Below, one piece after another: positions 1,451 to 59,448 of a DNA stretch of 64,000 nucleotides. Location of the stretch: the NCBI GenBank assembly GCA_964016885.1, contig OZ024745.1:36828001-36892000 (forward strand). The letters are read 5' to 3'. The DNA comes from Eledone cirrhosa. Lineage: Eukaryota. Both the position numbers and the translations under genes were made by a program. The notes under the pieces are model-generated. The model did no database searches. It was not told the DNA's origin and worked only from the letters and a program-made list of their open reading frames with translations. The number at the start of each line of letters is the position of its first letter. Position 1 is the first letter of the stretch.

Positions 1451-1667
1451 ATATATATATATATATATATATATATATATATATATATATATATATATAT
1501 ATATATATATATATATACAGTATTTTCCGTTGTGTTGTAATATAAATATTACACACAGTAGATTGACAGCTCACGTAGAGTTTGCTCGACGGTTCCAGTT
1601 GAAATTCCAAAAGTAATCCGGAGAAAAATAGAAAGATTTGAATGGATACAGTTTAGTTGAAAGGAAT

Positions 1668-1787
1668 TTATTGACACGTGTTTCTATAACAGTTACATAA
1701 CCTAAAACAGCTGCTATCTACAAAGTATTAGTTATGCAGACAATCAATATTTCAATGTTATTATTTACTGTCATTTCATCAGAATAA
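1668..1787 (-). ncRNA. Same hammerhead motif in the inverted PLE copy
   Basis: Reverse complement of 7251-7370 with intact CTGATGA / GAAACACGTGTC. Confidence 0.8.
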
Positions 1788-2702
1788 TATTACTGAGGAC
1801 CTATTTGGTTTTTATAGAGAATATTAGGAGAGATGGGTGAAGTTGTTAGAAGAATAGTTGAGGGGGTGGTTTTTTGATAGCAGTGAGAATTTTTGGTGGC
1901 AGTGAGTAATTAGATTCCCATCTGTTGTTTTGACATTTTTAGAGAATATATTATTGGTTATTTTTCTAAATCTATAGAGGGATTAGAGATAGTAAAGATA
2001 TGCGTGGTTGGTTTTGTGTTTGCACTTAATTAACATTCAGGCTTAAATTTTTTTCTTTCCAGTGTACGTATCCTTTTACCCATGCATTCTCACACAAACA
2101 TATTTGCACCCCTCTACAAAATACATATACTCACATTCACATAGTAACATGTTCATACTTACATACATATACACATGCATACATATATATATACATACAC
2201 ACATGTATTCATGTACATACATACGCGTTCACGTGTGTACATTTTCATACTCAACTTATGTTTATATACACACGTATAGACACACACATATATACATACA
2301 TACTCTAGTCTATGTGTATATATATACATATACATACATATCTATATATATATATCTATATATATATATATATATATATATATATATATATATATATATA
2401 TATATATATATATATATATATATAAGCATTTTAATACATGAATACACTTACATCTAACTATACACATCAAACATATATATATATTTACTTATTTATATAC
2501 ATTTTCACATATATATACATACTTATGGTCGCTTTCAGACACATTCATTATCGCATTTTTGCACCTATTCTCATCGGCATATATTTCCATTATTAGTGTG
2601 GTAATTTGAGGTTATTAATATACATATATATGTTGAGAAGAAATTGTTTTTATATTTTTCTAACTAGATTGAGGTTTATATAGTTGGGGGGATGTCCCTC
2701 TT

Positions 2703-4011
2703 TTATGTAATATTCGGCTTGTAGTGGGGAAAAAGGGTTTTAGTTCGGTGACGGCAAAATAATGTTCGTTCAATTCTGTTATTCAGCAATTTCTTCTTGT
2801 GTGTGATTATGTAATAAATCTCAAGATTACCCAATTTGCAGAAATTTTGGCTCCTGGAAAAGCTTTGGGTTTTAGCTAATTTCTCCCATTTTAGGGTAAA
2901 CTTTTGATCGCTATCCCTGAGCGTCCAAGCTTTTTCTGCTAAAGTTGTTACATTTCTTTGGCTCTGGTGTTTTATTGAGTTAGAATGCCTATATAATCGA
3001 GATTTAAAAGATGTTGCCGTTGATCCCACGTAATACCACTCGTTGCCTCCGGATTTAATGGTACACTTATAAATAATATTTTTTTCCAGGCAGTTATTGC
3101 CGAGGGGGCAGTTGTCAGGATAGGTGCAGTTACAGTTGTGTACGTTGGGTTTTCTCTGGAGTAGTATTGCGGACGAACTTAGGTGTGGTTTATTTATGTT
3201 CTGTAGTGTATTGTCTACTGTTTTTTTTTGTGTTCTTTGTACTTAAGTTTTTAGTGTTTTTGTTTAACCTTCTAGTATTGATCTTTTTTATGTGTTGTTC
3301 AAGGTTTAACGCTGTAGAGTATGACAGTCTTATAGTGGTGGGGTTTAGGATTTTGTGGTATTTGTGTGATGTAGGAAAATGTCTCTTAATTATTTTAAAG
3401 AAGAGTACTGGTAAATTTGTACTAATGGAACTATTGTATTCGGGGTTGTACCATAAGTACTCTTTGCATCGCTTTCTATTAGTTTTGTTTGTTGGTTTAC
3501 TGGTGTGCATACTATGGTAGTAAGTGTGGTTTGGTGTTGTGTTATTATATCTACCTATGTGGGATTTATTTTGGGTGTTTTGATTGTTCCCATCTATATA
3601 CTCTATTTTGTTGAGGTGGCCTGCTTTACTAAGGGCGTTATCGTAGTATTCGGCGTGTTCCTTAAATACTTGTATGTTAGAAGATAGACCCGAGATTCTA
3701 AGGGAAATATTTTTAGGGATAGATTTAATTATAGAGATGGGGTGGTTAGACCCAACATTTACGTATTTGAGATTTTCATTCAATTTATGAAACGGTTTAA
3801 TCAGACCAGAGTTTAAAATGAGTGTGACATCCAGGAAGTTAACTACTTTAAGGTTGTATTCATATGTTATAGTTAGTCCTATTTCGAGTAGTAGTTTTCT
3901 TATATCTTTGCGTAGTTTTTCTAGTTTTTGGTTATTTAGGTTTTTAACTAGGAGGAGAACATCGTCGCGGTATATTCCGCCGTGGAGATTGCTGAATTTT
4001 TCCTGGAGTCT
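2703..4011 (-). pseudogene. Truncated, frameshifted PLE RT/GIY-YIG coding remnant
   Basis: Starts at RLQEKF..YRDD; frameshift at the poly-T run 3221-3229; ends with the same KPNIT* C-terminus. Confidence 0.9.
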
Positions 4012-4073
4012 GTAAAGTCGAGCAACCCACACAGCAAACGCAACCACAACAATGTAAAAAACACTACCTGGAT

Positions 4074-58178: not shown

Positions 58179-58809
58179 GGTGGCTGCCAACTCGTTTTCG
58201 AGTACGGCCACTACTTTATATCAATATGCGATATAGTAGTACGGCCACTACTTTATATTTATATCCGATGCGCTGAACGAGTGTGATTTTTAGTCCAGCC
58301 AGCGACTTGAAAACTCTGGTACAAACACTACACTTGTGATAATTATTGACACATAGTGCTGGGCCCATGGTACCATGTGACGACAAGTGCAGAGAGATCT
58401 CCAGATATAAAGCAATGCCTGTGCCGTGAAGCTTTTATAGTGAGCAAAGGCACTACACAAAGCCAGTCCCACTCTCTTAACCAAGATGATATTTACCAAA
58501 AAGAAGAACATGTCAACATCATTGGATACCATCAGAGTTGCAGGTGTTATATCAGAGTTTTCCTTCTCCTAGAATTCTGCCTTGACAAAGGCTAAGGGGT
58601 CATCTCTCCCGGTGATTTTGGATGGCCATTGACTCGTAAGAGCTCCTTTGCCCTTTGACAGGTTTTGTTTTTAGTCCTGCAGTATGTCCACAGTCACCCT
58701 CCTCACCAAGAAACATTGGTGGGGTTGCCAGTTTAGTCGCCAACGACCCGACCATGAGACAGGTTGTACTGGGATACATGTTAACAGTAGCACCTACTGG
58801 TGACCTGAC
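58179..58809. mobile_element. Unclassified ~600-bp element in (CATA)n, copy B
   Basis: Matches 15045-15637 end to end. Confidence 0.85.
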
Positions 58810-59053
58810 ATATACATACATACATACATACATACATACATACATACATACATACATACATACATACATACATACATACATACATACATACATACATACA
58901 TATATACATACATACATATGCAAAAGGTAAACAGAAATACCAAAGCAAACGATAAAGTACCTTAAATAAATATATTTGTTTTAAGGTTTATATATATATA
59001 TATTAATAAAAGATCGGAGGCCATATTCAGTTAGTTCAGGTTTATTTAAAACT

Positions 59054-59111
59054 CCGTTATACATATTTCATTGAGGACTATCAGTTTATATAACCTGAGC
59101 TCTTCAGGCGG
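59054..59111 (-). ncRNA. Hammerhead-like motif, partly degenerate
   Basis: ccgc-CTGAAGA-gctcag..ctga..-GAAA-tatgta-TA-acgg within a short (TA)n-flanked island. Confidence 0.5.
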
Positions 59112-59228
59112 CAAAACCTAAAATAAACATTGAAAGTTCCTAATAAACATTTGAATTTGGAAAAATCCAATAATTTCCCCAAAAAAGATTTTCTTTTCTT
59201 TTCATGATACAATATATATATATATATA

Positions 59229-59448
59229 CAGTATTTTCCGTAGTGTTGTAATATAAATATTACATACAGTAGATGGACAGCTCACGTAGAGTTTGCTCGA
59301 CGGTTCCAGTTGTAGTTCCAAAAGTAATCCGGAGAAAAATAGAAGGATTTTAATGGATACAGTTTAGTTAAATAGGTTATGTAACTGTTATAGAAACACG
59401 TGTCAATAAATTCCTTTTAACTAAACTGTATCCATTAAAATCCTTCTA
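59229..59448. mobile_element. 220-bp miniature of the Naiad-type PLE (both termini, no ORF)
   Basis: 59229-59372 matches 1518-1660; 59373-59448 matches 7334-7409; (TA)n on both sides. Confidence 0.9.

Follow-up and report, generated by a model that had tools for sequence, protein, structure and literature searches.

Two elements with common ends in the window

We analysed a window of 64,000 nucleotides from Eledone cirrhosa contig OZ024745.1, in which a long element and a miniature terminate at the same two outer ends, here called E1 and E2. E2 lies 111 nt beyond E1 (E2 = E1+111), and both elements read as an inverted arm ending at E2 followed by a forward arm ending at E1. Unit positions refer to the natural unit of the family, which is 3,596 bp long, was taken from tandem copies elsewhere in the genome, and has E1 at 3485 and E2 at 3596. 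The features of the window are:

1518–1628, minus strand: 111-nt tail of the long element, with outer end E2 at 1518
1629–4011, minus strand: inverted arm, 5'-truncated, unit positions about 1070–3485
4010–4011, no strand: head-to-head junction of the two arms, with the 2-nt microhomology CT
4010–7409, plus strand: forward arm, unit 13–3485, ending at E1 (TTCTA) against (TA)n
4052–6373, plus strand: ORF for a reverse transcriptase (RT) with a C-terminal GIY-YIG-type domain and Hydra-clade motifs, broken in this copy
7246–7372, plus strand: hammerhead-like motif, with CTGATGA at 7256–7262, a 91-nt stem II, GAAA at 7354 and the palindromic ACACGTGT
25798–28256, minus strand: broken ORFs with PIF1 helicase matches, probably a Helitron-type remnant
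34598–39552, minus strand: broken non-LTR retrotransposon ORFs, with Exo_endo_phos, RVT_1 and zf-RVT matches
40145–40798, minus strand: a second, similar non-LTR fragment
59229–59372, minus strand: inverted arm of the miniature, comprising the 111-nt tail and 33 nt of body, with outer end E2
59373–59448, plus strand: forward arm of the miniature, 76 nt, starting inside stem II, without CTGATGA, ending at E1

Self-BLAST of the window confirmed the layout that a first-pass annotation had given for the long element, namely an inverted 3' end with a 111-nt extension joined to a forward copy ending at TTCTA, all inside (TA)n. A small correction is that the arms meet at 4010–4011 on 2-nt microhomology. 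Positions 1629–4021 are the reverse complement of 5058–7409 at 97.5% identity, the left end carries 111 extra nt (1518–1628) that the right end does not have, and (TA)n adjoins both ends. In tandem copies, the tail sequence is the stretch from E1 to the 54-nt leader of the next ORF. The inverted arm holds the 3' half of the ORF, the 3' UTR and the hammerhead-like motif, with CTGATGA on the minus strand at 1776–1782. Codon 2 of the forward-arm ORF is a stop, and the frame has gained a base near 4055 and lost one near 4361. No pseudo-LTR was found upstream of this arm.

The miniature reproduces this design in 220 bp. It is identical to 1518–1661 at 136 of 144 nt, beginning with the left end CAGTATTTTCCG, and to 7334–7409 at 72 of 76 nt, finishing with the right end TTCTA. 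RNA folds place the start of its forward arm on the 3' side of the 91-nt stem II hairpin, 20 nt before GAAACACGTGTC at 59393, and CTGATGA is absent from the miniature on either strand. The first-pass description of the miniature (both ends of the long element, a forward part that starts inside stem II, no CTGATGA) therefore stands.

The miniature is not a deletion product of 1518–7409, because it belongs to a different subfamily: the marker CATTAAAATCCTTC is present in both miniature arms and CATTCAAATCTTTC in both arms of the long element. Its junction is blunt or nearly so. A genome-wide scan (3.0 Gb, up to 1 mismatch) gave 1 match in total and no second copy of this junction, and the closest look-alikes of the miniature have other junctions. 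We conclude that the miniature is a one-off shortened copy and a separate insertion from the long element. A non-LTR retrozyme was rejected as its identity; retrozymes need tandem units with a complete type I hammerhead in each, and the miniature is a single inverted unit from which CTGATGA is absent.

A young Penelope-like family with Hydra-clade motifs

On sequence grounds, the long element and the miniature belong to one young, abundant Penelope-like (PLE) family with Hydra-clade motifs. An intact ORF of 773 aa is present at loci L062 and L063, with its start codon 55 nt past E2, and the median arm-to-arm distance of 0.2% indicates that the family is young. The RT residues (D of motif A, MG-D-A and YRDD) are kept in 99–101 of 101 aligned proteins, and the GIY-YIG residues (Y of IIY, Y and G of YVG) in all 101. 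The clade motifs are likewise recognizable: RVRWK at 35 (RW[KR] in 93/101), KADKT at 119 (DKT, in place of DKG, in 95/101), the linker CNCTYPDNC at 631 (pattern CxCX5C in 88/101), CKLCNLE at 729 (101/101) and CRH near the C-terminus (97/101). The CCHH motif is missing from the endonuclease, judged by eye against the description in the accessible text of PMC8557442; a single cysteine lies between IIY and YVG and is kept in 12/101.

A Pfam search with the protein itself gave no RT or GIY-YIG match, one of eight homologs gave an RVT_1 match at 9e-6, below the curated cut-off, and a PDB search by sequence gave nothing below E 0.29. The domain call is based on the motifs and on that one homolog. 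Resemblance to Hydra-1_Obim and Hydra-1_Amil was judged by eye from the supplement text of PMC8557442, as far as that text is accessible. Insertion into (TA)n, as in the Hydra clade, is seen here, and 30 loci found without requiring TA also show TA. We place the family by its motifs as a previously undescribed member of the known Hydra clade. Pieces 66–77% like the ORF at L154, L175, L194, L017 and L029 represent more distant families of the same kind nearby.

Outer ends are fixed, with one of each kind in two-armed insertions

Both ends recur throughout the genome. Exact patterns matched 1,616 times for E1 followed by TA and 1,294 times for E2 followed by TA in the 3.0-Gb assembly, and reversed control patterns gave 0 matches genome-wide. 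Read-throughs numbered 1,286 at E1 and 143 at E2. Loose TA ends also appear in contigs assembled from public runs, at E1 in X1, X4 and X5 and at E2 in X1 and X4; of these, X1 and X4 come from one study and possibly from the source sample.

Pairing of the ends was counted in a census of contig C1, where the matches listed form 135 clusters; the first 120 were taken and 15 left out, and all 120 lie within the first 151 Mb of the contig. The class of four loci was set manually, and two local duplicates entered the census only once. Among these 120 loci, chosen by exact E1 or E2 patterns so that ends elsewhere are under-sampled and old copies missed, 69 are bounded by E1 and E2, 0 by E1 and E1, and 0 by E2 and E2, while 30 show E1 only, 17 E2 only and 4 are unclassified. 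E1/E2 pairs outnumber every other outcome (69 of 116 classified loci), and 4 of 73 multi-arm loci (L092, L121, L129 and L178) end elsewhere or are odd. These counts support the first-pass proposal of two fixed 3' endpoints, used reproducibly and one per side. Four loci (L076, L065, L077 and L064) hold complex insertions that switch several times internally and contain tandem joints, and that are bounded by E2 and E1 where both ends are seen.

The element itself continues past each end with bases that match the target. After E1 the next base is T (CTA followed by T), and after E2 the sequence is TATAT, a word with 7 occurrences in the unit outside its microsatellite part. The TA flanks of 54 paired loci are longer on the E2 side (medians 47.5 vs 24.5 nt, p = 2e-4). 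Genome-wide, 20 TA units adjoin 480 of 1,616 E1 ends vs 412 of 1,294 E2 ends (p = 0.22), with numerators from the main subfamily only and denominators from both subfamilies; given this genome-wide comparison, we do not claim telomerase-like TA addition at E2. Abortive E2 starts in the flank of L188 were also rejected, since the motif is present on either side, in direct as well as inverted orientation, and is a pre-existing compound repeat.

Among 40 copies that read through E2 (L199–L238), 13 have their upstream 5' end inside the E1–E2 stretch of 113 nt, two of them at E1. Such 5' ends may mark transcription start or a stall in the tail.

Both arms of an insertion come from the same source

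The two arms of one insertion come from the same source. They disagree at 2 of 620 polymorphic-site comparisons, vs 30.6% in shuffled pairs, and their subfamily type agrees in 45 of 45 cases. For 7 of 8 pairs, a tree built from 47 arms joins the two arms of an insertion as sisters. The distance within a pair is smaller than that to the median other copy in 30 of 31 cases and smaller than that to the nearest other copy in only 16 of 31, because the family is young and resolution is low. Of 48 rare variants common to both arms, 24 also occur in other copies, and 58 private variants are found in one arm alone. Early gene conversion between arms may be a source of the common variants, which fit two RNAs from one source locus equally well as one RNA.

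The arms nevertheless differ in how far they reach. The 60 simple two-arm insertions (63 less L092, L121 and L154) range from 91 to 5,195 nt in total length, and 55 of their junctions are asymmetric. The tail-less arm extends further upstream in 31 of the 60 and the tailed arm in 28; in 16 the tailed arm is confined to the tail. Arm lengths are weakly correlated (rho 0.26, p = 0.04). Because the tail-less arm so often reaches further and the tailed arm so often stays inside the tail, neither arm is a copy of the other.

This asymmetry bears directly on the two-step priming and template-switch route that the first-pass annotation had favoured. In that scheme a single cDNA primed at E2 would fold back or switch template and copy itself, with E1 as the point of endonuclease resolution. 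It would fit the variants that arms share and the 5 of 60 junctions that are near-perfect palindromes, and the accessible text of PMC8557442 ascribes the tail to endonuclease-mediated resolution. Self-copying could not, however, have extended the tail-less arm upstream beyond the tailed one, and it cannot account for long tail-less arms whose tailed partner is confined to the tail. In addition, no E2 arm could be found for 30 single-ended copies that terminate at E1. We consider this scheme very unlikely; it is refuted as the general route and could hold for the symmetric minority.

The symmetric minority itself is larger than chance would give. Both arms stop within 5 nt of each other in 5 of 60 insertions, vs 0.42 expected (p = 2e-5). 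Together with the one-of-each rule, these symmetric junctions favour a single RNA molecule as the probable template for both arms. The main competitor is dual priming, in which two RNAs from the same source locus travel in one particle and each is copied from one target end, by RTs at E1 and E2. Postulated for L1 in the accessible text of PMC2837659, it explains the common variants, arms that overlap without strand displacement, and largely independent arm lengths. It needs an extra rule against E1/E1 and E2/E2 pairs (0 and 0 vs 69), and it does not predict the excess of same-base stops. A third, weak point against it is that tailed arms stop less often in unit 3280–3430 (7/43 vs 21/56 for tail-less arms, p = 0.025), as if the path had already been opened. 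On balance two RNAs seem unlikely to us, and one RNA the better reading.

Junctions carry the marks of joining. Microhomology of at least 2 nt is present in 26 of 45 insert-free junctions, against a null of 18%, and 23 of 68 junctions (71 less 3 alignment artefacts) contain inserted bases. Long inverted repeats are prone to deletion, and microhomology at the junctions also fits deletion, so one could suppose that insertions began as long symmetric palindromes that were then trimmed by deletion and gene-converted, the miniature being a deletion remnant. Three very young insertions (L094, L146 and L158) argue otherwise, with arms that are identical and junctions that are already asymmetric. The 58 private variants show that arms are not kept identical, and trimming leaves the E1/E2 rule unexplained. 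We regard this history as extremely unlikely.

Short insertions are the short end of a continuum

Insertions like the miniature are common: 18 of the 60 simple two-arm insertions are under 520 nt. They have 18 different junctions and form the short end of a continuum, and in 8 of the 18 one arm still runs all the way from CTGATGA to GTC. The tail and unit 3280–3430 are where early stops concentrate, which is why miniatures are common.

The first-pass annotation had suggested that such pieces may form their own non-autonomous family, of which the 220-bp element would be a self-propagating member. The shared ends and the abundance of short copies are in its favour, as are the non-autonomous PLE derivatives described in the accessible parts of PMC8557442 and bioRxiv 10.64898/2026.07.22.740005, and one junction does recur, at L004 and L007, which have unrelated flanks. 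Yet that junction sits on 4-nt microhomology, its two copies differ in subfamily type, and it has no further genome-wide matches beyond these 2. The miniature's own junction, the other of the two scanned genome-wide, is unique in 3.0 Gb, each of the 18 short copies has a junction of its own, and no mini element nested at the ends of another was seen among 120 loci. The family interpretation is therefore not supported and has, in our estimate, almost no chance of being right; the miniatures are likely dead ends.

Two further patterns were observed at the inner ends. L131 and L175 each hold two short insertions about 7–8 kb apart with nearly the same junction; at L175 the flanks of the paired insertions are duplicated too (99%), and at L131 only about 560 nt match, at 92%. 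Seven single-armed copies (L089, L097, L125, L150, L156, L193 and L236) have their 5' end at the element's internal TA-rich stretch (unit about 2637–2647), as if the cDNA had closed onto the target by TA homology, or through later deletion.

The predicted ribozyme cut is not tied to the junctions

The motif at 7246–7372, a putative hammerhead, also has GTC, an 8-bp base of stem II and a short stem I, and its predicted cut lies after 7365, 44 nt before E1. A search of Rfam detected no hammerhead at E values up to 10; among the 150 of 180 matches listed there were only microRNA-type chance matches on repeats. None of the 60 junctions falls within 3 nt of the predicted cut, and 1 of 40 read-through copies starts there, with the others spread over unit 330–3573. 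We therefore reject the ribozyme cut as the origin of junctions or 5' ends, and cleavage is likely not needed for insertion.

A bulged hairpin in the tail ends 13 nt before E2. Twin hairpins ahead of both ends were considered and rejected, as no fold is predicted for the 45 nt preceding E1 (0 kcal/mol). AATAAA lies at 7366–7371, right after the predicted cut and 38 nt before E1. Tandem copies have a T-rich stretch past E1, and no poly(A) was seen at E1 ends.

A model of twin priming at two fixed sites

We propose that both window elements are independent insertions into TA repeats and that their shape probably arose as two target ends primed one RNA, at E1 and at E2. An endonuclease would cut both strands within (TA)n. 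Each target 3' end would then pair with 3–5 nt of the RNA (TAT at E1, TATAT at E2) and be extended, one end from E1 and its partner from E2, which is located 111 nt beyond E1 in the same RNA. Synthesis of each cDNA would end independently of the other, in many cases early and in many cases within the tail or stem II hairpins, where the RT presumably stalls. The 3' ends of the two cDNAs would be joined by end-joining, through microhomology or with a few added bases. Early stops of both cDNAs would leave a miniature of 100–500 nt, and failure of one primer a plain 5'-truncated copy.

More tentatively, and with slightly more doubt than confidence, we suggest that fixed-site twin priming is the normal route of this family. 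Two RT active sites would work on one RNA from two programmed sites 111 nt apart, with 3–5 nt of telomerase-like TA alignment, and both junctions with the target would be made by reverse transcription. If true, this route would account in one step for why PLEs carry an inverted arm, have a tail on one side only and are biased towards microsatellites. Work on another clade, in the accessible text of PMC11167929, bears on the twin-priming model in both directions. There, both strands are cut and extended, two internal RT starts correspond to the ends of the tail, and hammerhead mutants still insert; counting against the short TA match of the model, the same work reports that start sites do not differ between the strands and that homology to the cut DNA is lacking.

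The family is useful for the question of PLE integration. The accessible text of PMC8557442 names the origin of inverted and tailed PLE insertions and the microsatellite preference as open, and that of PMC11167929 leaves the steps after priming unvalidated. Here the family is young, has intact ORFs and offers over a thousand mapped ends of each kind. Its counts add quantitative support to fixed-site twin priming and make that reading testable, with sharp predictions for the existing in vitro assay: one E1 start and one E2 start per insertion, one RNA, and TA pairing at the starts. The short insertions also carry a warning for annotators, as short PLE fold-back pieces with common ends mimic a MITE-type family, yet are truncation products.

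Comparison with known systems

Hydra-clade elements such as Hydra-1_Obim, as described in the accessible text of Craig et al. 2021 (PMC8557442), have RWK, DKT, a CxCX5C linker and a GIY-YIG-type domain with CxxC-E and N..CxH, as does the family reported here. They also have (TA)n targets, a hammerhead-like motif, partial tandems, an inverted 5'-truncated copy and a one-sided tail. Our family differs in its unit (3.6 kb vs generally under 3 kb), in its tail (111 nt vs 30–40 bp) and in its 91-nt stem II without an Rfam match. A canonical hammerhead in the pseudo-LTR is counted among the features of the clade. Two DNA words of the family were not found in the supplement text of that paper, in which long runs are incomplete.

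The one-sided tail and the inverted 5'-truncated arm are thus already published (PMC8557442), as are two internal start sites (PMC11167929), both in the accessible text of these papers. No printed record of the strict one-of-each rule, of the 111-nt tail or of TA homology at both starts turned up in the accessible literature. A full-text literature search returned no application of twin priming or of a one-of-each rule to PLEs in titles or abstract openings.

Poseidon_Ac (PAc; Frangieh et al. 2024, PMC11167929) resembles the family, in the accessible text, in having two internal RT starts that coincide with the tail ends, in the cutting and extension of both target strands, and in an AT-rich target. 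Its hammerhead is dispensable in vitro, and its dimer is predicted. It belongs to another clade, and the accessible paper derives from it no inverted arm and no one-of-each rule. The start sites here have a 3–5 nt TA match and lie upstream of the start codon, unlike those of PAc, which lie inside the ORF. Penelope of Drosophila virilis, in the accessible text of PMC2377424, likewise forms partial tandems flanked by inverted repeats of variable size and has an end repeat of 34–37 bp; it too is of another clade, and its tail is much shorter.

The miniature, short, ORF-less and made of PLE ends, recalls the animal non-LTR retrozymes (accessible text of bioRxiv 10.64898/2026.07.22.740005) and the non-autonomous Chlamys elements (accessible text of PMC8557442). 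These form multi-copy families, and retrozymes are tandem with a type I hammerhead per unit; the miniature, in contrast, is single, inverted and without a ribozyme core.

Twin or dual priming of L1, as presented in the accessible text of PMC2837659, shares with our model a second target strand that primes a second cDNA, a head-to-head inversion and a junction made by microhomology or end-joining. In L1 the first primer sits on poly(A), the position of the second varies within the element, and an internal deletion separates the fragments. The family described here uses two fixed sites, both of them internal, its arms overlap, and the inverted form is the commonest product.
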